Positions 676 to 16,700 of a DNA stretch of 58,589 nucleotides are shown piece after piece (positions within the stretch are counted from its first letter, which is position 1; each line of letters begins with the position of its first letter). Under the pieces are notes generated by a model that was not told the origin of the DNA, searched no databases, and worked only from the letters and a program-made list of their open reading frames with translations. Made by a program: the position numbers and the translations under genes. The DNA is from Candidatus Eiseniibacteriota bacterium (lineage in GTDB: Bacteria; Eisenbacteria; RBG-16-71-46; JABDJR01; JAWXBZ01): the NCBI GenBank assembly GCA_034440375.1, contig JAWXBZ010000011.1, positions 1 through 58,589 on the forward strand, read 5' to 3'.

Positions 676-2691
676 ATGTTCCCTGGCCGCCCCGCCGTCC
701 GCTCTGCCACCATCCCCTTTCTGATGGCTGTCTGGGTATCAACCATCCTCCTGCTCACCCCAAGCCTCGCCCGTAGTGGCTCCGGGTGGAATGACATTTC
801 AGACGAAGAACTGGCGATGACCTCCTGGCCCGGGGATCCCGAGGCCACGGCGGTTGTCCTGGAGGACGTGGGGGAGGTCGAGTTCATCGGTGAGTTTGAT
901 CTGGTATTCAAGCGATACCGGCGGATCAAGATTCTCACCAAGGGCGCGTACGAGAAATGGGGGACCGTCAAGATTCCCTACTTCGCGAAGAGTGGCAGCC
1001 AGAAGGTGGACTCGATCGAGGGCACGACGACGAATCGGGAAAGTGATGGATCCCAGACGCAGGCAAGAATTGACAGCAAGTCCATCTTTGACGAAGACGT
1101 GAATCGCTCGGTTCGACAGATCCGTTTCACGATGCCGGACCTTCGGCCGGGCAGCATCATCGAGTATCGCTACACGATGCACTCCCGGGGCGGGTCATTC
1201 CTCCGGTCCTGGGAGTTCGGTGCCGATCAGCCCACGCGATCAAGCGAGTTCGTTGCCACCATACCGGACAATCTCGAATACATCATGGTGAAAACCGGCC
1301 TCACTCACTTCGCTACCGAGGTGAAGAAGAAGGTTGGCTGGCCGAGCCGGCTCAGCGGCTACGAAAGTGCCATCAAACATGGCGTCGGCCAGACCCAGTA
1401 TTCATGGACGATGAAGGACGTGCCGGCCATCCGGGAGGAACCCTTCATCACGACGACCATGGACTACGTGCCCCGGCTTCGATTCCAGCTCTCGCACTGG
1501 TCGTGGCCGGGCGCGGAGGGGGTGGACGTCATCAAGGATTGGGAGACGGTGGCCCGGGACTTCAATGACAATATGGGATCCTGCCCCGCGGCGGAAGGAA
1601 AGGTGAAGGGGATCACCAGTGGCAAGACGGATCCCCGGGAGAAGATGGAAGCCATTTTGAAGTATGTCCGGCGGACCATGTCATGGGATCGGGGCGGTGG
1701 AGGAGGCTCGGATATCTGCATGGCTTTCAAGGCGAGAAAAGGCAGCACCGAGGATATCGCCAAGATCCTCACCTTGATGCTTCGGAAGTCGGATCTGCAG
1801 GCCTTCCCGGTTCTGGTCAGTACCCGGAGCAATGGCAAACCCATCACCATCTACCCACTCACGACTCAGTTTGACCGGATCATGACGCTCGTTGTGATCG
1901 AGGGGCGCGAATACCTGCTCGATGCTTCCGATCCACTACGGCCAATGGACCTCCTCCCCATGGAGTTGTTGAACGAGATGGGATTCGTTGCCGATCCCGA
2001 CGACCCGCGCTGGGTGGAAATTCCGGCCGGGAAGAACCGGTCCGAAACGGTGGTCCGGGCGACGCTTTCCGAGCACGGCGTGATATCGGGAGTTCTGGAA
2101 TCCTCGTCAACTGGTTACGCGGCCCTGGAGGCTCGTCACAAGCTTGGCGAGGAATCGGAACAGGCGTTCGTGAATCGCGTCTGGTCGCCGAAATTCCATA
2201 CGGGCTCCCTGGACTCGACCCGGTTCGCCGGCAAGGATTCCGTGGACTTGCCTTTGGTCACCACGGTTTACTTTTCCGACGTGCAAACGGTCAATGAGGG
2301 ATCACATCGCATTTACTTCGAGCCGGTACTGGCAAAGGTGGTCAGCGAGAACCCCTTCCCGAACCCCCGCCGGATCCTTCCGGTCGATCTGGGCTTCACT
2401 CTCGAGCGTGCCTACACGCTGACTCTGGACCTGCCCGAAGCGTATGCCCTTGAGTCGGTGCCGAAGGACATCAACATCATCCTGCCGCACAATGGCGGAC
2501 ATCTAAAACGAAAGATCGAGGCCGTGCCCGGGCAAATCCGCTTCCACCGGGAGTTGAGACTTGACCAGCCACGCTATGACGGCAGCGACCTCAAGGCCCT
2601 CCGCGATTGCTATGATCGCCTGTTGGCCGTTGATTCGGAACACATCGTTCTCGTCAAGCGTGCGGCAACCGCCGATGGAACCAGGCCGTGA
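676..2691 (+). CDS. Secreted DUF3857 / transglutaminase-like / DUF3858 protein, probably catalytically inactive
   Basis: Signal peptide; RIKIL..G, FTMP.L..GSIIEYRY and F..P.R..PVDLGF motifs. The catalytic Cys position reads KGSTED. The start may be ATG 724. Confidence 0.8.
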   Translation: MFPGRPAVRSATIPFLMAVWVSTILLLTPSLARSGSGWNDISDEELAMTSWPGDPEATAVVLEDVGEVEFIGEFDLVFKRYRRIKILTKGAYEKWGTVKIPYFAKSGSQKVDSIEGTTTNRESDGSQTQARIDSKSIFDEDVNRSVRQIRFTMPDLRPGSIIEYRYTMHSRGGSFLRSWEFGADQPTRSSEFVATIPDNLEYIMVKTGLTHFATEVKKKVGWPSRLSGYESAIKHGVGQTQYSWTMKDVPAIREEPFITTTMDYVPRLRFQLSHWSWPGAEGVDVIKDWETVARDFNDNMGSCPAAEGKVKGITSGKTDPREKMEAILKYVRRTMSWDRGGGGGSDICMAFKARKGSTEDIAKILTLMLRKSDLQAFPVLVSTRSNGKPITIYPLTTQFDRIMTLVVIEGREYLLDASDPLRPMDLLPMELLNEMGFVADPDDPRWVEIPAGKNRSETVVRATLSEHGVISGVLESSSTGYAALEARHKLGEESEQAFVNRVWSPKFHTGSLDSTRFAGKDSVDLPLVTTVYFSDVQTVNEGSHRIYFEPVLAKVVSENPFPNPRRILPVDLGFTLERAYTLTLDLPEAYALESVPKDINIILPHNGGHLKRKIEAVPGQIRFHRELRLDQPRYDGSDLKALRDCYDRLLAVDSEHIVLVKRAATADGTRP

Positions 2692-4628
2692 CGACGAAAC
2701 GGCCGGCCATGGCCTCCATTGTGATGCTGATCCTCGTCGCCTACCTGGGCGTTGCCTCGCCGGACCCGGCGACCCCGGCGGATGTGAACCCGTTCGACAC
2801 CTCCCTCATTCCCGCGACCCTGATAAAGGGTGCCGACCTCGTGGTGCGGGAAGAGGTTCAGGTATTTGAGATCGAAAGCATTCGAGCGGCAACGCGCCGC
2901 GTTCGAGTGGTGACGACGGTGATGAATGCCCGGGGCCGGGATGCCGGCGTCATGGTTCTTCCCTACGATGGCTTTCAAAAGGTGCGGTACCTCACCGGGA
3001 AGCTCCTGAACGACCGGGGGAAAGAGGTCCGTCACCTCGCCGGATCGGACATCCAGGATTACAGTGCCATCCAGGGGTTTTCACTTTACGAGGATGGGCG
3101 CGTGAAGTACGCCGAGCTCTCCCACGACAAATATCCCTACACGGTCATTTATGAGTACGAAATTGTCTACAAGGGGATTCTCGGCTGGCCGTCCTGGTGG
3201 CCTCAGAACGAAAAAGGGCCAGTCCAGAAAAGCCGCTTCGAGATCCGCGCGCCTTCCGACATGCCGGTCCGTCATCACATGATCGGCTTGAGTGTCCTGC
3301 CCAAGGTCACGGAGGAGGGCGGCCGCCGGATTTACCGGTGGAGTCTGTCCAACCAGCCGAAGCTCGAGATCGAGCCGCTGGGCCCCTCATACCGGGAGCA
3401 GGCGCCGCATCTCCTGACCGGACCGGTCCAATTCGAGATTGCCGGAAAGCCGGGGGACATGACCAGCTGGAATAGCTTCGGTGCCTGGTTCCACGATCTG
3501 TGGGACGGCCGGGCCGACCTTTCGGAGCCGGATGCCGCACGGGTCAGGGATCTTTGCGCCGGAGCCGGGACCGATATCGAAAAAGTCCGCCGGCTTTATG
3601 AATATCTTCAATCGAAGACCCGCTATGTGAGTGTTCAGCTTGGCATCGGCGGGTGGCAGCCGTTCGATGCCTCCTACGTGAGCCAGCAGGGTTATGGCGA
3701 CTGCAAGGCGCTCACGAACTACATGCTGGGCATGCTCGATGTGGCCGGAATCAAATCATGGCCGGCCTTCGTCATGGCCGGGCGGCACGAACCGGATCTG
3801 GTGGAGTCCTTCCCGAGCAACCAGTTCAACCATGTGATCCTGTTGGTCCCGACTCAGGAGGACACAATCTGGCTCGAATGCACCAGCCAGGACCAGCTCT
3901 TCGGCGAGCTCGGGGCATTTACCGAAGACCGGAACACCCTGGTCGCAACGTCCTCGGGGGGGTTCCTGGTCCGAACTCCGGTGACATCGGCGGGTCAGAA
4001 TCGACTGATCCGAAAGGCCCAGGTGACGCTGAATCCGGCAGGAAGGGCCACCGCCGACATCACAACGCGCTATACGGGCAATCAGCAGGGCGATGTGCGA
4101 AGTTCCCTGTCCGAGGCAACACCCCGTGAACGGGACGAATGGCTGCATCGCGAGATCGACATCGCGAGCTTCACGGTTCAGAGCGCCGATTTCTCCGATC
4201 TCGACGTCAATGACGGGGATCTGACTCTGAAGGCTTCCATTGAAGTGCCGGCCCTGGGGACGACCACCGGGCCCCGCCTTTTCGTGCGCCCCAACCTTGC
4301 GAACCGCTGGGCGCTCAGGCTCCCGAAGGCCCCCGGGAGAAACCACCCCCTCTGCTTCCCCTTTGCCTGGGTCGATGCCGATACGATTTCGTATCGATTG
4401 CCGCGGGCCTATACCGTGGAGAGCGCACCGCCCGATGTAACGATCGAGACGCCGTTCGCAAGGTATGAGTCGTCTCTGGTCGACAGAGGGTCTTTCGTTG
4501 TGTACCACCGCCGCCTGGAGATAAAACAGAAATCGATCGAGACCAGCGATTACGAGGAGTTTCGCCGGTTCCTCGACGAGGTCGTCCGGGCTGATCAGCT
4601 GCAGATGGTGCTGATCCGAAAGACGTGA
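2688..4628 (+). CDS. Secreted DUF3857 / transglutaminase-like protein
   Basis: GTGA overlap with the upstream gene; RYVSVQLGIGGWQP, YGDCKALTNY (Cys), NQFNHVIL (His), WLECT. Confidence 0.85.
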   Translation: MTTKRPAMASIVMLILVAYLGVASPDPATPADVNPFDTSLIPATLIKGADLVVREEVQVFEIESIRAATRRVRVVTTVMNARGRDAGVMVLPYDGFQKVRYLTGKLLNDRGKEVRHLAGSDIQDYSAIQGFSLYEDGRVKYAELSHDKYPYTVIYEYEIVYKGILGWPSWWPQNEKGPVQKSRFEIRAPSDMPVRHHMIGLSVLPKVTEEGGRRIYRWSLSNQPKLEIEPLGPSYREQAPHLLTGPVQFEIAGKPGDMTSWNSFGAWFHDLWDGRADLSEPDAARVRDLCAGAGTDIEKVRRLYEYLQSKTRYVSVQLGIGGWQPFDASYVSQQGYGDCKALTNYMLGMLDVAGIKSWPAFVMAGRHEPDLVESFPSNQFNHVILLVPTQEDTIWLECTSQDQLFGELGAFTEDRNTLVATSSGGFLVRTPVTSAGQNRLIRKAQVTLNPAGRATADITTRYTGNQQGDVRSSLSEATPRERDEWLHREIDIASFTVQSADFSDLDVNDGDLTLKASIEVPALGTTTGPRLFVRPNLANRWALRLPKAPGRNHPLCFPFAWVDADTISYRLPRAYTVESAPPDVTIETPFARYESSLVDRGSFVVYHRRLEIKQKSIETSDYEEFRRFLDEVVRADQLQMVLIRKT

Positions 4629-4696
4629 GACCGGCGGGGCACAGGAACACGTTGGCTGGCCGCCGTTTGGCGGTTATAGTCCGGGAGTGATGTGTC

Positions 4697-6736
4697 ATGC
4701 CTGAGTCGCCGATCATGGTGCGGGTCGTCCTCTTCACCGGAGGGCGCGGGTCCCGCGTGATGTCGCGCGAGCTGCTCAAGAACCCCCGCATCCAGGTGAC
4801 CCTGGCCATCAACGGATACGATGACGGCCTGTCGACCGGTGAAATCCGTCGATTTCTCGGTGATTCGCTCGGCCCATCGGATTTCCGCAAGAATGCCTCA
4901 GGCGTGGCGGCTGAGCTGCGGACCTGTCCCTTCGCGCTGGTGGAATTACTTGATCTCCGCTTTCCCCGGGAGTATGGAGCGCCGGAAGCCCTGGCCGCCT
5001 TCCGCCAGATCCGCGCCCCCGGAGCGCCAGTGGATGCTTTCCAGCAGCAGATGGAGGAACTGCTTGGCCAGGTGGGGGAGACGCCGCGCCGCGCGCTGGC
5101 GGATCGCCTGGAACTGTTCCAGGCCGAGCTGGCGCGGACTTCGAAGTCCTTCGAGTTTTCCGACTGCAGCATCGGCAACCTGGTATTCGTCGGATCGTTC
5201 CTGGTCAGCGGGCGGCACTTCAATCGAGGCGTCGAAGACTACTGCAACCTTCTGGGCCTGCCGCCCGGCCTCATCATGGACGTTACCGACGGGCAGAATC
5301 TGTATCTCGTTGCCCTGGATGAAAACAACCGCATCCTGCCGACCGAAGCGGAAATCGTCGGCCCGAAGGTCGGTCAGCAGATTCGCGACATCTACCTGCT
5401 CGAGCGCCCCATTCCGGATGACGAACTCAAGCGCCTGGAGCAGGAGACGCCCGTCAACATCGAGGGCTACCTGGATCGGCATTCGGTGGCGCCCCGGGCG
5501 AATGAAGAGCTGCTGCAACGGATCGCCGAGGCCGATCTCATCGTCTATGCACCGGGCACCCAGCACTCGAGCCTTTTTCCGTCCTACCTCACACCGGGCC
5601 TGGGCGAGTCCATCGCGGACAACCTCCGCGCCATCAAGCTGTTCATCACCAATCTGCACGAGGATGCGGAGATTGCCGGCAACAGTGCCGTGGATATTGT
5701 TCAGCGAGCCCTCTACTACCTGCGCGGCAAAGGAAGGCTGCCTTGTCCCGCGCCGGCCCTCATCACCCACTACCTCATCAATGACGCGGATCCTTCGGCC
5801 ACCTTCGCGGCGTATGTCCCCCCGGGGCGGCTGGAAACCATTGATGATCCTCGATTGGTTCGAATCGGGAATTTTGAAGACCGGATCACCGGCCACCACG
5901 ACGTGACCAAGGTTCTGCCACCCTTCGTGGAGGCTCTGCTTCGCAAGGGGGACCCGCTTCAACTCGCCGTCGTCCTCCTCGAGACCCGCTCGCTCGACAA
6001 AGCCAGTCAGACGATGATCGAGATGGTCCGCGCGGGACTCGATGCCTTGCCGGTCCAGGTCACCGTCTTCTACCAGGCTTCCCAGGCCTTCGACTCCGGT
6101 TTCATCGACTCGCTGCCGTTCGAGGTTCGGAAGCTGCCCGATGAGGCGGATCACGAGCGATTGTTCACTGATGTCATCGACGCATCGCGTTACGAGTACG
6201 TGGTTCTTTTTGAGTCCTCCGGGATGTACAAAGGGGAGGACATCGTCAGCATTGCGGGGCATCTCAGCAGTCGGAGGCTCGATGCGGTCTGGGGCAGCCG
6301 GCGACTCTCCGTGAATGACATCAAGCAGGCCTATCGCCTCGTTTATCGACGCAGCATCCTCGGCGGAGCCATCAGCTACATGGGAAGCCACGTGCTGAGC
6401 CTGGCCTACCTTGTTTTTTATGGCCGGTACATCGCGGACACCCTTTCCGGTGTCCGGGCCATCCGGGCTTCCTATCTCCGCTCGCATCCGCTGGACCCGG
6501 CGAGACGCGATTTCAATCAGCAGGTCCTCACGGGGTTGCTCCGCGAGCGGGCCGAAGTCATTGAGACACCGGTTCACTACTTTCCGATTTCTCCGGAAAA
6601 GATTCGTCGCACGACGATCGGTGATGGGTGGCGGTCACTCCTCACGATTGTCCTTGGCCGATTCCGCCGGCCGGCGCACGCGCCCCCGGGCGACGACCAC
6701 GGCTCCGCGCCACCGCTTTCGGGGGCGGCGCCCTGA
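4697..6736 (+). CDS. YvcK/CofD (UPF0052) domain fused to a C-terminal GT2-like domain
   Basis: N-terminal motifs LFTGGRGS, YDDGLSTGEIR, GPSDFRKN, SIGNL, ADLIVYAPGTQHSSL. C-terminal DAVWGSRR, IADTLSG and ETPVHYFP align with the GT2 at 8119. Confidence 0.75.
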   Translation: MPESPIMVRVVLFTGGRGSRVMSRELLKNPRIQVTLAINGYDDGLSTGEIRRFLGDSLGPSDFRKNASGVAAELRTCPFALVELLDLRFPREYGAPEALAAFRQIRAPGAPVDAFQQQMEELLGQVGETPRRALADRLELFQAELARTSKSFEFSDCSIGNLVFVGSFLVSGRHFNRGVEDYCNLLGLPPGLIMDVTDGQNLYLVALDENNRILPTEAEIVGPKVGQQIRDIYLLERPIPDDELKRLEQETPVNIEGYLDRHSVAPRANEELLQRIAEADLIVYAPGTQHSSLFPSYLTPGLGESIADNLRAIKLFITNLHEDAEIAGNSAVDIVQRALYYLRGKGRLPCPAPALITHYLINDADPSATFAAYVPPGRLETIDDPRLVRIGNFEDRITGHHDVTKVLPPFVEALLRKGDPLQLAVVLLETRSLDKASQTMIEMVRAGLDALPVQVTVFYQASQAFDSGFIDSLPFEVRKLPDEADHERLFTDVIDASRYEYVVLFESSGMYKGEDIVSIAGHLSSRRLDAVWGSRRLSVNDIKQAYRLVYRRSILGGAISYMGSHVLSLAYLVFYGRYIADTLSGVRAIRASYLRSHPLDPARRDFNQQVLTGLLRERAEVIETPVHYFPISPEKIRRTTIGDGWRSLLTIVLGRFRRPAHAPPGDDHGSAPPLSGAAP

Positions 6737-6741
6737 CCCGC

Positions 6742-7401
6742 GTGGCACGACTCTATTCGCTCGTCATCTTCGATATGGATGGCGTGCTGGCGGACAGTTC
6801 GATAGGGCATGCGCTGGCTTATGCCGAGCTCTGGTCCCGGCTCGGCATCGCCGCGCCGCCGTACGCCACGCTGGCCGGACGCCGCACGGTCGAGGTGGTG
6901 GCCGAAGTGACGCGCGCCCTGGCCCCTTCAACAGAAAAACTGGATGAGTGGGTTCGGTTCAAGCAGGATCAGGCGCGGCGGCATCTCGCGCAGGTGTCGT
7001 CCCTCTATCCTGACACGCTCCCCGTGCTCGATGCCCTGGACAACGCGGGCCTTTCGTTCGCCGTGGCCACCGGTGCCTCGCGCATGACCGCCGAACTCAT
7101 CCTGGCGCACGCCGGGGGCGTTTCACGATTCCGTTCCGTCGTCACGGGCGATGACGTGACCCTTGGAAAGCCGGCACCGGAAACCTATTTGAAGGTACTG
7201 GCCGCGACCGGACAGCCGGCGGATGCCGCGTTGACGGTGGAGGACTCCGAGGCCGGACTGCGGTCGGGGCTGGATGCCGGCACCTGGGCCTGTTCCGTTC
7301 GAACAGGGATCACGGCTCGGGACGATCGATTCGTGGGCGCCCTGGGTGATCTGAAGGGGCTGCTGCGGCTCCTGGGATTGGCGGCGTCGTGTCCCGGTTG
7401 A
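6742..7401 (+). CDS. HAD-family phosphatase (beta-PGM/CbbY-like)
   Basis: IFDMDGVL motif I, VATG motif II, KPAPE motif III, VEDS..G motif IV. Start is GTG 6742 or CTG 6733. Confidence 0.85.
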   Translation: MARLYSLVIFDMDGVLADSSIGHALAYAELWSRLGIAAPPYATLAGRRTVEVVAEVTRALAPSTEKLDEWVRFKQDQARRHLAQVSSLYPDTLPVLDALDNAGLSFAVATGASRMTAELILAHAGGVSRFRSVVTGDDVTLGKPAPETYLKVLAATGQPADAALTVEDSEAGLRSGLDAGTWACSVRTGITARDDRFVGALGDLKGLLRLLGLAASCPG

Positions 7402-8156
7402 TGATCGTTCCGGCGGCGGGCGCCGGCACCCGTCTCGGCTCGACTCTCCCGAAGCTGCTCGTTCCGGTCGGTGGGCAACCGATGATCGACCATCTTGTAG
7501 CGCGTTACGGTCCCTTCGTGGATCAGTTCATCCTGGTGGTCAGCCCCGCCGCGAAAGCGGCCGTGCGTGCGCACTTCCCCGATGGCCCGCGCATCGTGCT
7601 CGACATTCAACCGACCCCGACCGGAATGCTCGACGCGATCCTTATCCCCACCAGTCATGTCCGGAACATGAACGTGGACGAGATCTGGATCACCTGGTGC
7701 GACCAGGTGGCCATCCGGCCGGAAACCGCCGGCCGGCTGGCGGAAGTCATGGCGCACCCGCCCGCCCCCGACCTGGCACTGCCAACGGTTATCCAATCGG
7801 AGCCATACATCCACTTCGATCGCGGGGAGGGAGGTCGGATCAGTCATGTCCGACAACGCCGTGAGGGCGATGTCATGCCGGCCGACGGGGAAGGGGATTC
7901 CGGGCTTTTCGCGCTTTCCAGGCGGGCCTATCTTGAATGGCTGCCTGAGTTCGAGCAGAGTGCACCCACCGGTGGGCTCACCGGCGAGCGCAATTTTCTC
8001 CCGTTCATTCCGTGGGTGGCTGATCGTGCCGAGGTTCGTACCTTTGCGGTGACCCATACCATGGAAGCCACCGGCATCAATACACCCGCTGAACTTGAGC
8101 GGGTCGAGGCATTTCTCCGTGACCAGGACACTCAGTATCGTCATCCCGGCGTATAA
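7389..8156 (+). CDS. Sugar-phosphate nucleotidyltransferase (GlmU N-terminal-like)
   Basis: PAAGAGTRLG..LPKLL.PVGG.PMI, Q..PTG, WCDQ and GINT..EL motifs; no left-handed beta-helix domain. Confidence 0.85.
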   Translation: MSRLMIVPAAGAGTRLGSTLPKLLVPVGGQPMIDHLVARYGPFVDQFILVVSPAAKAAVRAHFPDGPRIVLDIQPTPTGMLDAILIPTSHVRNMNVDEIWITWCDQVAIRPETAGRLAEVMAHPPAPDLALPTVIQSEPYIHFDRGEGGRISHVRQRREGDVMPADGEGDSGLFALSRRAYLEWLPEFEQSAPTGGLTGERNFLPFIPWVADRAEVRTFAVTHTMEATGINTPAELERVEAFLRDQDTQYRHPGV

Positions 8157-8847
8157 CGAGGAGCGATTCATCGGGCCGCTGCTCGAGCGGATTCTGGCAC
8201 TCGATCTTTCGCCCCTCGGTGTGGACAAACAGGTGATCGTGGTCAACGACTGTTCGAAGGACAGGACAGCGGAGATCGCGGCGGGGTTTCCGGGGGTCAG
8301 TGTCACGACGCTGGCGCAAAACAGCGGAAAGGGTGAGGCGGTCAAGACCGGGATCGCGATCGCAACCGGCGATCTGCTCATCATCCAGGATGCCGACCTG
8401 GAGTACGACCCGGAGGATTACATCCCGATGCTCCGTGTGCTGCTGGCGGGGGAGGCGGATGTCGTTTACGGCAGCCGGTACACCCGGCACCCCGGGCGGG
8501 GCCGGCTATACAACCTCCTGACCGGCAAACATGCCAACCAGGGCTGGCTGGCCTACCTGGGTGGCCAGAGCCTCAGCTTTGTCTGCCTGCTGTCCACGGG
8601 CCATTACCTGGCTGACACCGTGACGGCACTCAAGCTGTTCCCCTCCGAGGTCATCAAGTCGCTGGGATTGGAGACGACCGGATTCGAACTGGATCATGAG
8701 ATCACCGCCAGGCTCTTCGCGCGCGGTTACCGGATCCGCGAGGTCCCGATCAAGTATTTTCCCCGTACCAAGGCCGAGGGGAAGAAGATTGGCCTGCGGG
8801 ACTGGTTCATCGGAACCCGGACATTTTTCCGCTATCGCAGCGGCTGA
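8119..8847 (+). CDS. Glycosyltransferase family 2, polyprenol-phosphate glycosyltransferase (DPM1-like)
   Basis: LSIVIPAYNEE, VNDCSKDRT, NSGKG.AV, QDADLEYDP, VYGSR and EVPI.Y.PR motifs. Confidence 0.9.
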   Translation: MTRTLSIVIPAYNEERFIGPLLERILALDLSPLGVDKQVIVVNDCSKDRTAEIAAGFPGVSVTTLAQNSGKGEAVKTGIAIATGDLLIIQDADLEYDPEDYIPMLRVLLAGEADVVYGSRYTRHPGRGRLYNLLTGKHANQGWLAYLGGQSLSFVCLLSTGHYLADTVTALKLFPSEVIKSLGLETTGFELDHEITARLFARGYRIREVPIKYFPRTKAEGKKIGLRDWFIGTRTFFRYRSG

Positions 8848-8865: not shown

Positions 8866-10467
8866 TCACGGCACCGGGATGTGTGTCGGCCAGATGATCC
8901 AGTAATCGTTCTGGAAAACAGATCCCTCCGGGGGTGTATCCGCTTTCCTCGAAATCAATATGTACTGGGCCTCGTACTTCCTGGCCACACTCTCGAGTGC
9001 CGTGCGCGAACCGTCGCGATAGGCAGGCTCGACATCTTTCATGCGAGCCAGCCACTCCGGGCCGCTTATTCCGTCGTAGGCGCAGGCCCCCCCGTCCTTG
9101 TCGGATACGACGATGGCCCGTCGGCTCAGCACCCGGAACCCGGCATTGGCCTCATGGGGTGGGACAAGGATCAGGTCGTCCCGCGCGGTATGAGCCTGAA
9201 CCCACGCTCCGGCTTCCGCCAGATAACAGCGGGTCGATGCGTCGTTACCTGTTGGCACGGCCGCCGCCTGACCCTCCCGCGCACGATGTCGGAGGGCCTG
9301 CATCGCGTTGACGGCCTTTGTATCCAGGTTCAGCAACAGCGCAAAAGCAGCGAGCCAGATCAAGGCTCCCCTCCCACCGCCGAAATCCCGCCAGTGCCAT
9401 AGCCCCAGCGCAATGACGGCAAAGATCGAGAAATAGGCATAACGGGATGCGAACCAGAGTGCGAAACGAGACAGGCCGGGCCAGACATAGGTGATCGAGC
9501 TGGCCAGGCTCAGGATCATGGCCAGAACAACGGTGGTCTCGATGAACCGGCGGGCACCGGCCGTCAGTCTCTGTCTTATCCGCGGATAGATCAGCAGGGC
9601 GAGCAGAAGAGGTGCAAGGAGCGTGCTGGCCGCCACCAGCACGGTTCCCCGGGTCGGGAAGAAGGTCAGATCAGCCCTCACGAGCAGAATCTCCAGCGAG
9701 GGAGCCTTCTGGATCATCGTGGCGTGTTTCAGCACCAGTGGAAACAAAACGACCGGCAGGATGAGGGCGGAGTGAATCAAGCCCTCACGGTAGTGAGATC
9801 CAGTCCGCCCCAGCCAGGCATAGGTGCCGGCACCGATGGCAAGGAGCAGAAATCCTGTCGGTGGATGCGTGTAGGTCAGCACGGCCGCCAACAGCGTGAA
9901 GATCTGGATCAGCCAGCGCTCGCTCAGCCCCCGGTACAGCAGGTAGAGAAGCAGCGGCGAGGCGGCACCCACGATTTCGTTCGGCTTCAGTGAGGGAAGC
10001 CCCCAGATCGGGTAGCCCCGACGGGTGAATGCGGCCAACAACGTTGCCATGGCGGCCACGATCGGATTCCCGATCACGCGCTGATTGAGCAGAAAGCATC
10101 CCGCGAGGAACAGGAAACCCATGGCGCCCAGGGCGATTCTTATGGTGGTCCAGCGGTTTTCCGTCAAGTCGTTGAGGAAATTCATGGCATGGGAATAGGC
10201 CTGAGGATAGATCGCGTGATGAACGACGAACAGCCTGTCTCTCCGAAAGAGATCGGGCTCCCGGGTCATCAATTCGTGGGCCTGGTAAAGCGCCATGTCA
10301 CAACCGCTGCAGACAATCTCGCAGGGCGGCAGATCTCTGAAACTGCCCATCAGCGTGATCAGCCAGTACGCCGCTATCCCTGCTAGGATGGCCCCGGCAA
10401 TCAGCGACGCTCGTGAGCCCGTGAATCCCGGGCGGGTCGAATGGGGGGGGATGGGATTCTCCATCAT
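8866..10467 (-). CDS. Polytopic membrane protein, GT-C-like, with a DUF6798-like C-terminal region
   Basis: Many hydrophobic segments; C-terminal FR..SRR.IVV..K...W..R...ARKY...YI pattern. Start uncertain (10467, 10464 or 10566). Confidence 0.55.
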   Translation of the reverse strand: MMENPIPPHSTRPGFTGSRASLIAGAILAGIAAYWLITLMGSFRDLPPCEIVCSGCDMALYQAHELMTREPDLFRRDRLFVVHHAIYPQAYSHAMNFLNDLTENRWTTIRIALGAMGFLFLAGCFLLNQRVIGNPIVAAMATLLAAFTRRGYPIWGLPSLKPNEIVGAASPLLLYLLYRGLSERWLIQIFTLLAAVLTYTHPPTGFLLLAIGAGTYAWLGRTGSHYREGLIHSALILPVVLFPLVLKHATMIQKAPSLEILLVRADLTFFPTRGTVLVAASTLLAPLLLALLIYPRIRQRLTAGARRFIETTVVLAMILSLASSITYVWPGLSRFALWFASRYAYFSIFAVIALGLWHWRDFGGGRGALIWLAAFALLLNLDTKAVNAMQALRHRAREGQAAAVPTGNDASTRCYLAEAGAWVQAHTARDDLILVPPHEANAGFRVLSRRAIVVSDKDGGACAYDGISGPEWLARMKDVEPAYRDGSRTALESVARKYEAQYILISRKADTPPEGSVFQNDYWIIWPTHIPVP

Positions 10468-10581
10468 GGTCAGTGTCCCTGGGATTCGCTTCGAAAAACA
10501 CGAGCGGGGAGCCTCGACAGCGCACGATCGTAACAGATCAGATGATCCATGGCTCATGGCCACCATCTCAGGGAGGATTCA

Positions 10582-11211
10582 GTGAACAAATACGTCACCG
10601 AACTCATCGGAACGTTCTTCCTCGTTCTCACCATCGGTTGCACGGTCGTGGGCGGGGCCGCGGGGGTTATTCCGCCCCTGGCGATCGGTGCGGTGCTCAT
10701 GGTCATGGTCTACGCGTGTGGACATATCTCCGGGGCCCATTTCAACCCGGCGGTGACGCTGGCCATTGTCATGCGCGGCAAGTGCGAATCGAAGGACATG
10801 ATCCCGTACTGGATCTTCCAGGTTGTCGGCGCCGTGCTGGCCGCATTCGTGGTCAAGTTTCTCTTCCCGACCGCAAGTCCGGCCGCGGCGGAGATCGACA
10901 CGGTGCGCGCGCTCGTGGCCGAGTTTCTCTTCACGTTTGCGCTGGCCTGGGTCGTGTTGAACGTGGCCACATCCAGCGACACGGCCAACAACTCCTTCTA
11001 CGGCCTGGCCATCGGCATGACCGTGCTCGCAGGTGCCTTTGCGGTTGGCGGCGTCTCGGGCGGTGCCTTTAACCCCGCGGTTGCCATCGGGGCGGCCATC
11101 ATGGGATTGCTCGACATGACCAGCATCTGGATCCACCTGGTGGCCGATTTCGCCGGTGCGGCCGCCGCGGCGCTGGCCTTCAAGGCGTTGAGCACGGCGG
11201 ACGCCTCCTGA
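10582..11211 (+). CDS. MIP-family aquaporin
   Basis: GGAGG RBS and GTG start; SGAHFNPAVT and GGAFNPAVA; AEFLFTF. Confidence 0.92.
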   Translation: MNKYVTELIGTFFLVLTIGCTVVGGAAGVIPPLAIGAVLMVMVYACGHISGAHFNPAVTLAIVMRGKCESKDMIPYWIFQVVGAVLAAFVVKFLFPTASPAAAEIDTVRALVAEFLFTFALAWVVLNVATSSDTANNSFYGLAIGMTVLAGAFAVGGVSGGAFNPAVAIGAAIMGLLDMTSIWIHLVADFAGAAAAALAFKALSTADAS

Positions 11212-11915
11212 GCCTCGCGGACAACCTGGGCGCCGTTCGCGCCCGCATCGAAATAGCCTGTCGCCTGGCCGGCCGTGAGGTCGGTTCGGTGACACTGGTG
11301 GCCGTGTCAAAGACCTTTCCCGCCGAGGCGGTGGTCCTGGCACGCGAGGCTGGCCTCTTTCATTTCGGGGAAAATCGGATCCAGGAAGCCGAAGCCAAGA
11401 TCCCGCAGGTCGCCGCCTTGTCCCGGGGCGTCGCCGGTGATCCCGTCTGGCACCTGATCGGCCATCTCCAAACGAACAAAGCCGGCAAGGCCGTAGAACT
11501 CTTCGACCTGATCCACACCATCGATTCGCCCGCGCTGGCCGCCGCCGTCGCCCACCGAGCCGCCGCCATCAACAAGCAACAGCGCGTCCTCGTACAGGTC
11601 AACTGCTCCGGTGAACCCCAAAAAAGCGGCTGCCGCCCCGAAGAAGCACAGGAACTGGTAAGAACCGTAGCCACCCACCCCGAGCTGGCCCTCGAAGGCT
11701 TCATGACCATCGGCCCCCGGAACGAAAACCCCGAATCAGCCCGCCCAGCCTTCCAACAATGTCGCGCCCTGCGCGACGAGATAGCAAAGTCCCAGACCCT
11801 CAAACTCCCCCACCTATCCATGGGAATGTCCAACGATCTGGAAGTAGCCATCGAAGAAGGTGCCACTCTGATCAGGCTAGGAAGCTCCCTCTTCGGCCAC
11901 CGCCCAAGTCCCTGA
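11208..11915 (+). CDS. yggS: PLP-homeostasis protein YggS
   Basis: LVAVSKT, FGENRIQE, WHLIGHLQTNK, LSMGMSND and AIEEGAT..RLGS motifs. The family-like N-terminus (NL..VR.RI..AC..AGR) extends upstream of GTG 11289 to CTG 11208. Confidence 0.93.
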   Translation: MSLADNLGAVRARIEIACRLAGREVGSVTLVAVSKTFPAEAVVLAREAGLFHFGENRIQEAEAKIPQVAALSRGVAGDPVWHLIGHLQTNKAGKAVELFDLIHTIDSPALAAAVAHRAAAINKQQRVLVQVNCSGEPQKSGCRPEEAQELVRTVATHPELALEGFMTIGPRNENPESARPAFQQCRALRDEIAKSQTLKLPHLSMGMSNDLEVAIEEGATLIRLGSSLFGHRPSP

Positions 11916-12640: not shown

Positions 12641-12960
12641 GCCGCGACACCGGCGGGCGGCCGGCCATCGAAACAACGGCCACCGGCGTACGAATCACGG
12701 TACGCGTGACGCCGCGCGCATCGTCCAACGAGGTGCGTGGCTTTGATGCGGCGGGCCTTCTTTCTGTTCGGGTGACGGCGCCGCCGGTTGATGGCGACGC
12801 CAATCGGACCGTCGTCGAACTGCTGGCGCTGTGGTCGGGAGTTTCCAAATCCTCGGTGCGGGTCGTGCGCGGCGCGTCGTCCCGGACCAAAACGATCGAG
12901 ATCAATGGCGTCGATGCCGGCACGCTGGGCGAACGCCTGACGCGAAAGGACCAACGGTGA
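12637..12960 (+). CDS. DUF167 (YggU/UPF0235) protein
   Basis: VRVTPRAS, VRVTAPPVDG.AN and G.SSR.K motifs. Start is CTG 12637 (inferred) or GTG 12706. Confidence 0.85.
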   Translation: MSRDTGGRPAIETTATGVRITVRVTPRASSNEVRGFDAAGLLSVRVTAPPVDGDANRTVVELLALWSGVSKSSVRVVRGASSRTKTIEINGVDAGTLGERLTRKDQR

Positions 12961-13778
12961 TTCCACTCCGCCAGCAGCTCGATGAAGCCGTTTCCGCCAT
13001 CAGGAAGAAGGCCGGCCTTTCGCCACGCCTGGGCCTGATTCTCGGCACGGGGCTCGGCGACGCCTCGGACGCCATCGAGGATGCCGTGGCCATCCCTTAC
13101 CACGAGATCCCGCATTTCCCGACCTCCACCGTCGTTTCCCACTCCGGCCAGTTGATCCTCGGCCACCTGTCGGGGCAGCCGGTGGTGGCCATGAAGGGGC
13201 GCGTGCACTTCTACGAGGGTTACACGATGCAACAGGTCACCTTTCCGATCCGCGTCATGCGGGCACTCGGGGCGGAGATCCTGGTGGCCTCCAACGCCGT
13301 GGGGGGAATGAACCCGCTGTTCGATGCCGGCGATATTGTCTGCATCACGGACCATATCAACTTGATGGGGGACAACCCGCTCATCGGGGCCAACGACGAC
13401 ACCCTTGGGCCCCGCTTTCCCGACATGAGCGAGCCGTATGACAAAGGGCTAATGCGGCTCGCCGAGCGCGTAGCGCTCGACGAGAAAATCAAACTCCAGA
13501 AGGGGGTGTTCGTCGCGGTGGCGGGCCCCAATCTCGAAACGCGGGCCGAGTACCGGTTTCTGCGGGCCCTCGGTGCCGATGTCGTCGGAATGAGCCTCGT
13601 CCCGGAAACAATTGTCGCGGTGCATGGGGGCATGAGGGTGCTGGCTTTTTCGGTGGTCACCGATGCCTGCCTGCCGGATGCGCTGGAGGCGGTCGACATC
13701 GAGCGGATCCTGGCCACGGCGGCCAGGGCCGAGCCGGTCCTTTCGCGGCTGGTGTCCGCGGTCCTCAAGCAGATCTGA
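12957..13778 (+). CDS. punA: Purine-nucleoside phosphorylase (trimeric, PunA/XapA type)
   Basis: ILGTGLG, GRVHFYEGY, DHIN, GPRFPDMS, GPNLET.AE and GADVVGMS.VPE motifs. Confidence 0.92.
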   Translation: MIPLRQQLDEAVSAIRKKAGLSPRLGLILGTGLGDASDAIEDAVAIPYHEIPHFPTSTVVSHSGQLILGHLSGQPVVAMKGRVHFYEGYTMQQVTFPIRVMRALGAEILVASNAVGGMNPLFDAGDIVCITDHINLMGDNPLIGANDDTLGPRFPDMSEPYDKGLMRLAERVALDEKIKLQKGVFVAVAGPNLETRAEYRFLRALGADVVGMSLVPETIVAVHGGMRVLAFSVVTDACLPDALEAVDIERILATAARAEPVLSRLVSAVLKQI

Positions 13779-13794
13779 CCGCGATCCTTTCCCG

Positions 13795-16700
13795 ATGAGT
13801 CTTTTCCCCGGGTTCTCCCGCACCATCCTCCTTGCCGACGACGAGGAGGTCACGCTTCGCTTCTGGCGCGAGGAGAAAATATTCGCGCGCCAGCTCGAAC
13901 TGCGTCAGGACGCACCGCGCTTCGTCTTTTACGAGGGCCCACCCACGGCCAACGGCCGGCCGGGCATCCACCATGTGCTGGGTCGCACGATCAAGGACCT
14001 GGTCTGCCGCTACCAGGCGATGCGGGGCTACCTGGTGGAACGGAAAAGTGGCTGGGATACCCATGGCCTGCCGGTCGAGCTCGAGGTCGAAAAGAAGCTC
14101 AAGATCCAGGGGAAGGAACAGATCGAGGCGTACGGCCTCGAGGAGTTCAATCGGCTGTGCAAGGAGTCGGTCTTCACTTACAAGGATGAGTGGGAGAGGA
14201 TCACCGAACGAATAGGCTTCTGGCTTGACCTCGAGCACCCGTATGTCACGCTGGACAATGACTACATCGAATCCGTCTGGTGGTGCCTCTCACAGTTCTG
14301 GGACAAGGGACTGGTGTACGAGGGGTTCAAGATCCTGCCCTACTGCCCCCGCTGCGAGACCCCCCTTTCCAGCCACGAGGTCAGCCAGGGATACGCCGAT
14401 GTCGAGGATCCCTCCGTCTTCGTGAAATTCCAGAGCGTCGACGACCCGAATCTCTTCTACCTGGCCTGGACGACGACCCCCTGGACGTTGATCAGCAACG
14501 TGGCGCTCGCGGTTCATCCGGAAGAGACGTATGTGCGGGTGAAACTCCTGCCGCGCGTCGGGAAGGATGGGGTGGCGAAAGTCGATACGGGGCACGCGGC
14601 CGGCGAGGATCTGATTCTGGCGAAGGCGCGGTTGTCGGTCCTGTATGGGCCGTATGACATGGTGAGCGAGTTCCCGGGGAAGGATCTCGCCGAGAAGAGA
14701 TACGTCCCGCTGTTTCCCTACTTTGGCGTCTCCGAGAACGCGTTCCGCGTTCTCGGAGCTGTGTTTGTCTCCATGTCCGACGGCACCGGCGTCGTTCACA
14801 CGGCTCCGGCCTTCGGCGAGGACGACTACCGGCTCGGATTGGCGGAGAAACTCCCCATGCCCCGACCCGTCAATCGGCGTGGCGAGTTCACGGAGGACAT
14901 CACGGCCTTCGCCGGTCAGTTCGTCAAGAAGACCGACCCGGCCATCATCGAGGAGCTGCGCGCCCGTGGCGCCCTGTACACGGCCACGACCTTCACCCAC
15001 AGCTATCCCTTCTGCTGGCGATGCGACACGCCGCTCATCTATTACGCGCGGGATTCGTGGTACCTGAAGACGACGGCATTGAAAGCGGAGATGCTGGCGG
15101 CCAACGCCACGATCGAGTGGTTTCCGCCCGAGGTGGGCGAGAAGCGATTCGGCGAGTGGCTCGAAAACAACATTGACTGGGCGATCAGCCGCGACCGCTA
15201 CTGGGGAACACCGCTGCCGATCTGGCGCTGCGAAGAGTGCGGGATCACCGATCTGGTTCCGAGCCGCGCGGGCCTCGCCGAACGGGGCGCGCTCGTTCCG
15301 GACGATCTCGACCTGCACCGGCCGTTCCTCGATCGGATCACGTTTCCCTGCCGGGTGTGCCGGGCCACCATGCGGCGCGTCCCCGAAGTCATCGACGTCT
15401 GGTTCGACTCGGGCGCCATGCCCTTCGCCCAGTGGCACTACCCCTTCGAGAACAAGGACCGGTTCGATATCAGCTTCCCGGCCGACTTCATCTCGGAGGG
15501 GATCGACCAGTGTCGCGGCTGGTTCTACAGCCTGCTGGCCGTTTCGGTGGCGGTGACCGGCCAGGCGCCGTATCGACGCTGCCTGGTCAACGGACATGTG
15601 CTGGATGCCGCCGGCCAGAAGATGTCGAAGCACAAGGGAAATACGGTCGACCCGTGGGATCTCCTGGGGAAGGAAGGGGCGGACGCGGTCCGCTGGTACC
15701 TGATGGTCAATTCGCCGCCATGGCTGCCCACCCGCTTTGACCGGAACGGCGTCACCGAAGTGGCTCGCAAGTTTTTCGGCACCCTCCGGAACGTGGCCAG
15801 TTTCTTTGCCGTGTACGCCAATATCGATGGTTGGGGCTCGGGCGCTAAGTCCGCGTCCGACACCCCCTGGCCCCTCCTCGCCGTGGAAAGCCGCCCGCTG
15901 ATCGACCGCTGGATCCTCTCGCGCCTCGACGGCCTCGTGGCGGACGTCAGCCGCCATCTTGATGAACACGATGTGACCCGCGGTGCCCGGGCACTCCAAT
16001 CCTTTGTTCTCGATGATCTTTCCAACTGGTACGTCCGGCGCAACCGTCGGCGTTTCTGGAAAGGGGAGATCGGGGCCGACAAGTCGGCCGCCTATGCCAC
16101 GCTTCACGAGGTGCTGGCCACGCTCTCGCGATTGGTGGCACCCTGGGCACCGTTCCTCGCCGAGGAACTGCACCAGAAGATCGTCCGGCCAATCGATCCA
16201 ATGGCCCCGCTCAGCGTCCATCTCACCGACTGGCCGATCGGCGGCGTCCGCCCCCGGGAGGATGCGCTCGAACAGGCGATGACCGCAGCCATGACCGTGG
16301 TGGAGACGGCCCGGGCGGTCCGGAGCCAGGCCGGACTCAAGGTACGTCAGCCGCTGGCGTTATTGATGGTGGCGCCGATTCCCAAAGCGGCGGACGCGGG
16401 AGCCGCGCCGACGCTCCCGCCCGCTGTGCATCGAGCCCTGGCCGAACTGGGTGACCTGATCCTGGATGAACTGAACGTGCGCGAGGTTCGCGCGGTACCG
16501 CCGGCCGGTCTCTTCCGCTACGAGATCAAACCGAACTTCAAGGCACTCGGACCGGTGTTCGGCAAGGAGGTCGGCCCGGTGGCCGAAGCCATCCGCCACC
16601 TTCCGGCCGAAGCGGTCGGCCGACTCGCCGGAGGGGAATCGGCCACGGCGCTGGTGGGGGGAACCGACGTGACCCTGCTGCCCGCCTGGGTGGATGTCCT

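Follow-up and report, generated by a model that had tools for sequence, protein, structure and literature searches.

This analysis concerns a cassette of four genes at positions 4697-8847 of a 58,589-nucleotide stretch from Candidatus Eiseniibacteriota bacterium (GCA_034440375.1, contig JAWXBZ010000011.1, positions 1-58,589, forward strand), the whole of which is called the window below. Four open reading frames (ORFs) lie on the + strand of the region, at 4697-6736, 6628-7401, 7389-8156 and 8095-8847. The first encodes a two-domain fusion protein, here called FUS, and the others encode a HAD hydrolase, a nucleotidyltransferase (NTP) and a glycosyltransferase of family GT2. In our best reading, the cassette would be the cytoplasmic, donor-making half of an envelope glycosylation system of the lipid-carrier/GT-C type. 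The features of the region are as follows, each with the evidence that identifies it.

4652-4680, + strand: sigma-70-like hexamer pair TTGGCT-17-TATAGT in the 68-nt gap upstream of FUS (promoter scan)
4697-6736, + strand: FUS (P0001, 679 aa), with a YvcK/UPF0052-fold N-domain and a DPM1-like GT-A-fold C-domain (Pfam CofD, AF2 model, VIA)
4697-5938, + strand: N-domain of FUS, residues 1-414, with a putative YvcK/GlmR-type nucleotide-sugar site (profile A7)
5939-6736, + strand: C-domain of FUS, residues 415-679, a predicted GT2 paralogue (hhalign of profiles A2 and A3)
6742-7401, + strand: HAD-IA hydrolase, 219 aa from GTG 6742 (HAD_2, TIGR02009, NF053653)
7389-8156, + strand: NTP, a 255-aa sugar-1-phosphate nucleotidyltransferase resembling the GlmU N-domain (NTP_transf_3, TIGR01173)
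8125-8847, + strand: GT2, a 240-aa DPM1/AglJ-like protein with an intact DAD motif (Glycos_transf_2, DPMS 5mlz)
8866-10467, - strand: P0121, a polytopic membrane protein with DUF6798 as its C-terminal domain, 533 aa when counted from the Met at 10467, in an ORF that reaches 10566 (PF20604)

The likely starts, judged from the sequence and from alignments of homologues, are GTG codons at 6742 for HAD, 7389 for NTP and 8125 for GT2. An earlier note on this DNA had described four tightly overlapping genes; with the refined starts the genes are closely packed and overlap in part, with one 5-nt gap between the FUS stop and HAD and overlaps of 13 nt between HAD and NTP and of 32 nt between NTP and GT2. 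The DUF6798 gene is convergent to GT2, with 18 nt between the two. The scan before FUS found one sigma-70-like site, against 1.5 +/- 1.1 in shuffled sequence, so the hexamer pair is no evidence of a promoter; the promoter and terminator scan of the region returned nothing above chance. In a search with FUS, 1786 of the 8000 candidates scored were relatives at E<=1e-3, which indicates that the cassette genes are real and not chance ORFs. The fusion put forward in the same note is also borne out, since the GT-A half, although invisible to Pfam, is matched by Foldseek, VIA and hhalign.

The conservation of the cassette was assessed across the species genomes of GTDB (one genome per species, about 185,600 in all), in which 396 stretches encode a FUS relative, mainly in Acidobacteriota and Gemmatimonadota. 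Of the 1786 relatives from the protein search, the 120 listed include the window's own protein, and the other 119 share 51-70% identity with it over 93-100% of the query. The best 80 of the 396 matching loci were analysed; ORFs were called from stop to stop and clustered by BLAST, a crude procedure under which the GT2 cluster includes paralogues. The counts given here refer to the 56 loci with at least 2.5 kb of flank on both sides, NTP and GT2 being counted within 6 kb of FUS. GT2 was found near FUS in 56/56 loci and NTP in 55/56, and HAD was found in 17/56. FUS, NTP and GT2 are a strongly conserved trio, to which HAD is an optional addition, and by tblastn the order FUS-(HAD)-NTP-GT2 is kept nearly everywhere. 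The adjacent proteins, from metagenome-assembled genomes (MAGs) of Gemmatimonadota, Acidobacteriota, Nitrospirota, Calditrichota and Pseudomonadota, are 46-81% (GT2) and 44-59% (NTP) identical to those of the window. The sole well-flanked locus without an NTP ORF is L048 (11969-12820), where an 850-bp gap of fitting size separates FUS from GT2; given the size of that gap, NTP may be frameshifted or misassembled there.

Membrane proteins recur in the same neighbourhoods. A GT87 membrane protein lies near FUS in 17/56 loci and a polytopic protein of about 670 aa without a Pfam family, here called c9, in 25/56; the two never occur together (0/56), and 42/56 loci have one of them. An LPG_synthase_TM protein is found in 26/56 loci and a radical-SAM/SPASM protein in 30/56. 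HAD tracks GT87, both being present in 14 loci, and is found in none of the 25 c9 loci. Two layouts can be told apart. Type A, in Gemmatimonadota, Blastocatellia and others, reads (LtaS-like)-GT87-FUS-HAD-NTP-GT2; type B, in Vicinamibacterales, comprises DedA, a long GT2, GDSL, FUS-NTP-GT2, a convergent c9, LPG_synthase_TM and radical SAM. A FastTree phylogeny of FUS (69 rows) splits into two main clades, each with 99% support, that agree with these layouts. The genes of the earlier note are thus syntenic elsewhere, but the phosphatase that it had paired with the fusion is no core member, HAD being found in 17/56 loci and 0/25 c9 loci. The note's placement of the genes in a lipid-linked glycan context gains support from the GT87, DedA/VTT, LPG_synthase_TM and Wzx-like neighbours and from the fusions of FUS to polytopic membrane proteins described below; LtaS-like genes complete the envelope-type neighbours seen at other loci.

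Some of these neighbours merit a separate remark. In several type-B loci (L017:15490-16446; L038, L063, L072, L077), LPG_synthase_TM (MprF flippase-like) and radical-SAM/SPASM genes adjoin c9. In the type-A loci L009, L013, L021 and L076, membrane proteins of the LtaS/sulfatase family (PF00884, about 620-670 aa) lie directly upstream of GT87-FUS; they may serve as a periplasmic phospho-transferase partner.

FUS is the only gene with a PF01933 match in the 3.96-Mb assembly. This Pfam model, named CofD, covers residues 10-367 of FUS with 68.7 bits (cut-off 30). The best NCBIfam match of the N-terminal part is TIGR04357 ('GAK CofD-like'), at 88.7 bits against a cut-off of 340. The YvcK model TIGR01826 scores 54.8 bits against a cut-off of 196, so that family membership by score is not reached, and no match of FUS to a CofD equivalog model was reported at E<=0.01. 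On these scores the N-domain is, as had been supposed, no ordinary orthologue of GlmR or CofD. It also lies, as the earlier note had said, outside the usual yvcJ(rapZ)/whiA context of the YvcK fold, its neighbours being transglutaminase-like genes, HAD, NTP and GT2.

The fold of the N-domain was compared on an AF2 model built from 25 homologues (pLDDT 75, pTM 0.68). With VIA, residues 5-412 superimpose on the YvcK-type structures 2o2z/2hzb with Z 24.3 (root-mean-square deviation 3.5, 300 residues aligned) and on 2ppv with Z 23.5, whereas the CofD/FbiA structures 3c3d, 3c3e, 3cgw and 6uw1 reach Z 14.4-15.8; Foldseek agrees on the YvcK-type matches. A profile of the N-domain (A7, 31 sequences) matches the UPF0052 structures 2ppv, 2hzb, 2o2z, 2q7x and 2p0y with E-values from 6.7e-13 to 5e-6, and no CofD/FbiA chain of the PDB at E<=1. 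By sequence profile and structure model, the N-domain is thus predicted to be YvcK-like and much closer to YvcK than to CofD/FbiA.

The motifs of the N-domain that are common to YvcK are GG-x-G-S, (D)DG-x-S-x-G, P-(G/S)-D-(I/F)-R, (H/C)S-(L/I)-GNL, PG-(S/T)-x-x-(T/S)S and a conserved Asn; the first takes the form GGRGS, which is invariant. GlmR of L. monocytogenes catalyses UDP-GlcNAc synthesis, and its residues D40, D41 and N198, mutated by Pensinger et al., are described as needed for uridylyltransferase activity (PMC10128056). The equivalents of D40/D41 are D42/D43 of FUS, which are invariant in 25/25 and 31/31 FUS sequences and align to DDG/DNG of the YvcK structures. In B. halodurans YvcK, the contacts to the UDP-sugar are described as T13, N217, Y264 and R300 (PMC5482804). 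The N217 position is occupied in FUS by the invariant N319, and the Y264 and R300 positions fall outside the alignable part. T13, the Thr of the GGGTG loop that touches the ligand in the B. halodurans protein (PMC5482804), is replaced in FUS by an invariant Arg, R17. A helical stretch of about 70 aa, at roughly residues 87-155, is inserted in FUS between the PSDFRKN and CSIGNL motifs and has no counterpart in YvcK. The C-terminal third of its YvcK domain is diverged, with residues 352-400 poorly modelled (pLDDT <50). Across phyla the N-domain keeps a mean column identity of 64%, with dozens of invariant polar residues. From these comparisons, the nucleotide-sugar site of the N-domain looks conserved and competent for catalysis.

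The two proteins that accompany FUS nearly everywhere are of familiar types. NTP matches NTP_transf_3 with E 2.5e-18, and the Pfam families IspD and NTP_transferase match as well. TIGR01173 (glmU) matches its residues 5-249 with 59.4 bits (cut-off 366.85) and the PDB GlmU structure 9dqf its residues 2-248 with E 3e-11. K22, Q74 and D105 are invariant in 18/18 sequences and align to K25/Q76/D105 of GlmU, the UTP site of that enzyme (PMC10128056). The protein thus corresponds to the GlmU N-domain only, without the acetyltransferase domain and below the equivalog cut-off; the CofC family PF01983 was not reported at E<=1e-3. Since the resemblance to GlmU extends over the full length and the K/Q/D triad is intact, the product is likely a UDP-sugar.

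The stand-alone GT2 matches Glycos_transf_2 (PF00535) with E 5e-31. Its best PDB match is the P. furiosus DPMS 5mlz (E 1.3e-14), over residues 3-223, that is, the entire catalytic domain, followed by GtrB sll0501 and ArnC. D89, A90, D91, R118, R214 and K220 are invariant, and of these D89-A90-D91 and R118 align to the DAD and GSR motifs of 5mlz. A hydropathy scan of GT2 found no hydrophobic segment. Similarity to DPMS, GtrB and ArnC points to a putative polyprenyl-phosphate sugar transferase.

The C-domain of FUS is less easily placed. Pfam GT2 (PF00535) gives no match at E<=1e-3 to the C-terminal 280 residues, NCBIfam yields a faint AglJ-type GT2 match at residues 498-651 (E 1.2e-4), and the C-domain profile (A2) finds nothing among PDB sequences at E<=1. 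In Foldseek and VIA comparisons, residues 418-657 match DPMS, ArnC and GtrB, and then GpgS and MpgS; with VIA, DPMS 9ep0 aligns to residues 420-657 with Z 15.6 (root-mean-square deviation 3.4, 211 residues), and 5mlz gives Z 15.5. When the C-domain profile (A2, 31 sequences) was aligned with that of the stand-alone GT2 (A3, 18 sequences), hhalign gave a probability of 99% and E 8.5e-18 over 218 columns. By this profile match, the C-domain is predicted to be a paralogue of the GT2 encoded beside it. A complex prediction for the two (A2 and A3) scored 0.00 in both runs and gave no verdict on their pairing.

The motif DADLE of GT2 has become (E/D)-S-S-G-M in the C-domain, where S507, S508, G509, M510 and Y511 are invariant and the first carboxylate of the DXD is kept as E or D. 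In the P. furiosus enzyme (PfDPMS), Gandini et al. describe D91 and Q93 as metal/diphosphate ligands, R202 as part of the A-loop and R117 as binding the phosphate of dolichyl phosphate (PMC5526996). Their counterparts are as follows, the FUS positions being mapped transitively, through the GT2-5mlz alignment and the profile alignment of GT2 with the C-domain.

PfDPMS D91, metal/diphosphate ligand: GT2 D91, FUS S508
PfDPMS Q93, metal/diphosphate ligand: GT2 E93, FUS M510
PfDPMS R202, A-loop arginine: GT2 R214, FUS I631
PfDPMS R117, dolichyl-phosphate phosphate: GT2 R118, FUS R535

R535 is invariant and stands next to a second invariant arginine, R536, in the motif WGSRRLS, which aligns to YGSRY. 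The C-domain would thus have no canonical site for nucleoside-diphosphate (NDP)-sugar and metal, while at least part of the carrier-phosphate site appears to be kept. Its mean column identity across phyla is 62%. Given the loss of the donor site, the retention of the carrier-phosphate arginine and the strong constraint, we call the domain remodelled and not dead.

The HAD protein matches HAD_2 with E 1.3e-21, TIGR02009 with 92.5 bits (cut-off 153) and NF053653 with 77 bits (E 1.5e-21, cut-off 245). Its best PDB matches are the beta-phosphoglucomutase (beta-PGM) 3dv9 (2e-16) and the pyrophosphatase 3qub (3e-13). These matches place it, by similarity, in the beta-phosphoglucomutase / BT2127-pyrophosphatase / CbbY subfamily; mutase, phosphatase and pyrophosphatase activities are all conceivable for it. 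Its relatedness to the inorganic pyrophosphatase BT2127 raises the possibility that it drives the uridylyltransferase reaction through pyrophosphate hydrolysis rather than acting on a sugar phosphate.

Natural fusions connect FUS to the membrane. In the protein clusters P0037 and P0038 (1165 and 1172 aa), GT87 is fused to the N-terminus of FUS, and in P0123-P0125 (1283-1323 aa) FUS carries a C-terminal extension of about 600-650 aa. The extension of P0123 (residues 677-1323), the one that was compared, is c9 (hhalign 100%, E 8.5e-147). GT87 and c9 are thus two unrelated membrane families in the same position, each of which is found joined to FUS and not to GT2. These fusions suggest that FUS sits on a membrane partner.

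The corresponding gene of the window would be the convergent one at 8866-10467. PF20604 (DUF6798) matches residues 418-479 of its product P0121 with E 4e-12. A crude hydropathy scan of P0121 shows at least six hydrophobic segments, six of them within the first 420 residues, followed by a soluble C-terminal domain. Its sole close homologue by word-index search is P0122 (60% identity); a longest contig of 7718 bp is listed both for P0122 and for the closest homologue of FUS, P0002. An exhaustive search with the DUF6798 protein returned 111 representatives at E<=1e-3. A profile of its family (A8, 26 full-length sequences, PF20604 in 24/26) aligns with that of c9 (A4) over 487 columns (hhalign 97.7%, E 1.9e-12), and neither the DUF6798 protein nor c9 shows a relation to GT87 (A5) by hhalign. 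By these profiles, the DUF6798 protein of the window appears to be a distant homologue of c9. That homology, together with the HAD-containing core, makes the window a third variant, with a type-A core and a convergent c9-like partner.

Taken together, the cassette and the convergent DUF6798 gene (8866-10467) may form one lipid-carrier-type envelope-glycosylation module, a reading to which we give about an even chance. First, the GlmU-like NTP, an enzyme type assigned by similarity, would make a UDP-sugar from UTP and sugar-1-phosphate. The anchor-less GT2 would then load the sugar onto polyprenyl phosphate at the inner face of the membrane, as its DPMS, GtrB and ArnC relatives and its intact donor and acceptor residues suggest. 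Finally, a polytopic and probably GT-C-type protein would use the lipid-linked sugar outside the cytoplasm; this would be the DUF6798 protein here, and GT87 or c9 elsewhere. FUS would be an obligatory third cytoplasmic subunit, docked on the membrane protein as the fusions suggest, and it would bind both the UDP-sugar and the carrier lipid, or the loaded form of that lipid, and so couple or gate sugar supply to lipid loading and hand-over. HAD would be an accessory, either a sugar-phosphate mutase/phosphatase or a pyrophosphatase that pulls the first step forward. A coupling or gating subunit is the most likely role of FUS, ranked above the catalytic ones.

Several observations weigh against this module. 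The nature of the membrane partner is one: that the DUF6798/c9 proteins may be GT-C glycosyltransferases is a lead from structure comparison, and a weak one. The Atlas structure neighbours of the DUF6798 protein fall in a cluster with PMT_2 in 57% of its members (TM 0.68), and the Atlas neighbour of the c9 family is DUF2298 (TM 0.80), both of them weak leads. The structure model of the DUF6798 protein, made from a two-sequence alignment, is unusable (pLDDT 38, pTM 0.29). Against the PDB, the A8 profile found nothing below E 0.26, and the low E-values of the c9 profile (A4) came from designed repeat proteins without a passing stretch. Neither GT87 nor c9 lies within the fetched flank in 14/56 loci. 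The residue assignments in the C-domain of FUS pass through two alignments, as said above. All of the best 80 loci are MAG records, with no cultured host among them, and the cluster names are MAG labels too. Finally, the very high conservation of many polar residues in both domains of FUS (mean column identity 64% and 62%) fits an enzyme better than a sensor or scaffold, and this high conservation leaves real room for catalysis, either by CofD-type sugar-1-phosphate transfer or by GlmR-type nucleotidyl transfer.

The first of these catalytic roles grows out of the earlier note, which had likened the N-domain to the phosphotransferase CofD and NTP to its partner CofC. The analogy is weakened, because the partner is GlmU-like (with the K/Q/D triad and no PF01983 at E<=1e-3), the domain is YvcK-like (Z 24.3 against 14.4-15.8) and most lineages do without the phosphatase. 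The YvcK-like domain could nevertheless carry out phosphotransfer. The N-domain would then be a CofD-type phosphotransferase that moves a sugar-1-phosphate or polyol-phosphate from an NDP donor made by NTP to a hydroxyl or phosphate group, either on a lipid carrier or on a lipid-linked sugar held by the DXD-less GT-A domain, with release of nucleoside monophosphate (NMP). A phosphodiester- or diphosphate-linked lipid intermediate would result, from which HAD would trim a phosphate. We regard this as unlikely. It draws on the fold shared with CofD/FbiA (Z 14.4-15.8) and on the many invariant, enzyme-like polar residues of the N-domain. The C-domain, without a canonical donor site, keeps R535 and gains the invariant R536, which makes a composite active site conceivable, and HAD and NTP adjoin in the window and in 17/56 loci. 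The N-domain is, however, far closer to YvcK than to CofD, NTP is GlmU-like and not CofC-like, and 39/56 loci have no HAD. An intact, ordinary GT2, which would be enough for lipid loading, is always there.

FUS could also be an enzyme of a new kind, in which the YvcK/CofD fold and the DXD-less, DPM1-like domain form a composite site that transfers sugar-1-phosphate from a UDP-sugar to polyprenyl phosphate or polyprenyl-phosphate-sugar, with release of uridine monophosphate. This has an outside chance in our view. If true, FUS would be a soluble phosphoglycosyl transferase (PGT), docked on a membrane partner and unrelated to the known PGT superfamilies, and the YvcK fold would gain a defined transferase chemistry.

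Nucleotidyl transfer is the other catalytic role to be weighed. Here the N-domain would be a GlmR-like accessory uridylyltransferase, one more UDP-sugar synthase, which the GT-A-like domain would tether to the membrane machinery and which would channel UDP-sugar to GT2. The best structural matches of the N-domain are indeed YvcK/GlmR homologues, and, of the residues that GlmR is described as needing to make UDP-GlcNAc (D40, D41 and N198; PMC10128056), the two aspartates have invariant counterparts in D42/D43. A dedicated GlmU-like NTP beside FUS in 55/56 loci would, however, make a second synthase redundant, the Thr of the GGGTG loop is the invariant R17, and the region corresponding to B. subtilis Y265/R301, which bind the UDP-sugar, is unaligned and poorly modelled (352-400, pLDDT <50). 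We consider this role quite unlikely.

A glycosyltransferase, a HAD phosphatase and a nucleotidyltransferase are together the classic pattern of pathways of the glucosyl-/mannosyl-3-phosphoglycerate type. By that logic the end product would be a compatible solute or soluble glycoside, with NTP supplying the activated sugar, GT2 adding it to a small phosphorylated acceptor and HAD then removing the phosphate. GpgS and MpgS are indeed among the sequence or fold relatives of GT2 and the C-domain. The best relatives of GT2 are, however, DPMS, GtrB and ArnC, with DPMS matching over the whole catalytic domain; most loci lack HAD, natural fusions join FUS to polytopic membrane proteins, and many envelope and flippase-type genes lie in the loci. 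We therefore hold a soluble product to be very improbable. Least credible of all is a role in making a cofactor that depends on CofD, F420-like or other, for which the sole support is the Pfam name of PF01933, CofD, and the source annotations '2-phospho-L-lactate transferase', and against which stand the missing CofD equivalog match at E<=0.01, the missing profile match to a CofD/FbiA structure at E<=1, the NTP without a CofC family match, and a GT-A fusion that travels with membrane glycosylation genes and a GT2. The window showed no F420 context; no search for cofG/cofH/cofE was made in the genome.

The origin of the cassette in this genome was assessed against 40 related genomes of the same family, order or class (70-100% complete). 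None holds an orthologue of FUS, the best match being 25% identical in the N-domain only. None holds an orthologue of NTP, for which the best matches are GlmU-like genes with 26-28% identity. The DUF6798 protein likewise has no orthologue in related genomes, where its C-terminal domain alone matches, inside other proteins. In a midpoint-rooted FastTree, FUS of the window is sister to that of the Gemmatimonadales locus L001 (64% identity, support 99) and lies within a set of 13 rows, 11 of them Gemmatimonadota (support 98). The absence of orthologues from the 40 relatives and the nesting of FUS among Gemmatimonadota suggest horizontal acquisition and fit a transfer of the whole block. The GC content of the cassette (0.62-0.645) is the same as that of its surroundings and gives no signal of transfer. 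From the flanking genes in five relatives no island boundaries were definable; in these genomes the transglutaminase-like and YggS homologues lie on separate contigs, and YggS is at most 59% identical.

The other genes around the cassette are as follows. Directly upstream, at 676-2691 and 2688-4628 on the + strand, lie tandem paralogous exported proteins with DUF3857 and a transglutaminase core; the two genes overlap by 4 nt, and a single hydrophobic segment lies at the N-terminus of each protein. No ORF of the 80 related loci clustered with either. Beyond the DUF6798 gene is a MIP/aquaporin gene at 10549-11211 (+; PF00230, E 2e-34). A 254-aa Arg/Gly-rich ORF at 10579-11343 (-), without a family match, was discarded as a shadow of the MIP gene. 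Further downstream, past YggS and DivIVA, are two ordinary housekeeping genes, one for a PNP_UDP_1 phosphorylase at 12831-13778 (+) and one for an isoleucyl/class-I tRNA synthetase with a DUF5915 tail at 13663-17043 (+).

Among the closest known systems are the pairs of a polyprenyl-phosphate sugar synthase and a membrane glycosyltransferase, such as Ppm1-PimE (GT87), GtrB-GtrA/Gtr and ArnC-ArnT. As in these systems, a DXD-bearing, DPM1-like GT2 stands next to a polytopic membrane protein, GT87 in 17/56 loci, and the mycobacterial Ppm1 offers a further likeness to the GT2 of the cassette as an anchor-less catalytic GT2 that needs a partner. Unlike in those pairs, the GT2 here has FUS as an obligatory companion and travels with a dedicated UDP-sugar synthase, GT87, c9 and DUF6798 can take one another's place as membrane partner, and it is FUS, not GT2, that is fused to that partner. 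With GpgS/MpgS and their phosphatases, the cassette shares GT-A relatives of GT2 and the C-domain and a similar set of glycosyltransferase, phosphatase and sugar activation; it differs in a GT2 match weaker than that to DPMS/GtrB/ArnC, in the optional HAD and in the membrane-linked context.

FUS has the same fold, the common motifs and the invariant Asp-Asp pair of YvcK/GlmR of B. subtilis and L. monocytogenes. YvcK, however, is a stand-alone protein of about 320 aa encoded in yvcJ(rapZ)-yvcK-whiA, whereas FUS is a 679-aa fusion with an insert of about 70 aa, a GT-A domain, R17 in place of Thr and a diverged C-terminal third. CofD/FbiA with CofC resemble FUS and NTP in the superfamily fold and in the adjoining nucleotidyltransferase, but the structural match is weaker, the profile match is absent at E<=1 and the partner in the cassette is GlmU-like. 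By its description, a transposase-flanked, Clostridia-like region of Mycoplasma fermentans PG18 has a comparable trio, in which a GT2 glucofuranan synthase is accompanied by a split CofD-family gene and a gene for an NDP-nucleotidyltransferase (PMC11658790). There, according to the same source, the GT2 is a membrane-embedded, polymerising synthase and the CofD-family gene is a pseudogene (PMC11658790). Our literature search found no description of the fusion, of the cassette or of DUF6798/PF20604.

YvcK/GlmR is widespread, and its role is debated, having been seen as a UDP-sugar sensor, an activator of GlmS or an accessory uridylyltransferase. The cassette places the YvcK fold beside a predicted UDP-sugar synthase, an intact putative lipid-carrier GT2 and a membrane protein to which it is sometimes fused, and so provides a testable setting for the dealings of this fold with UDP-sugar. 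The DXD-less yet strongly conserved GT-A domain of FUS would be a good case of a repurposed glycosyltransferase paralogue. The cassette is common in major soil phyla, and it probably marks an undescribed envelope glycoconjugate.

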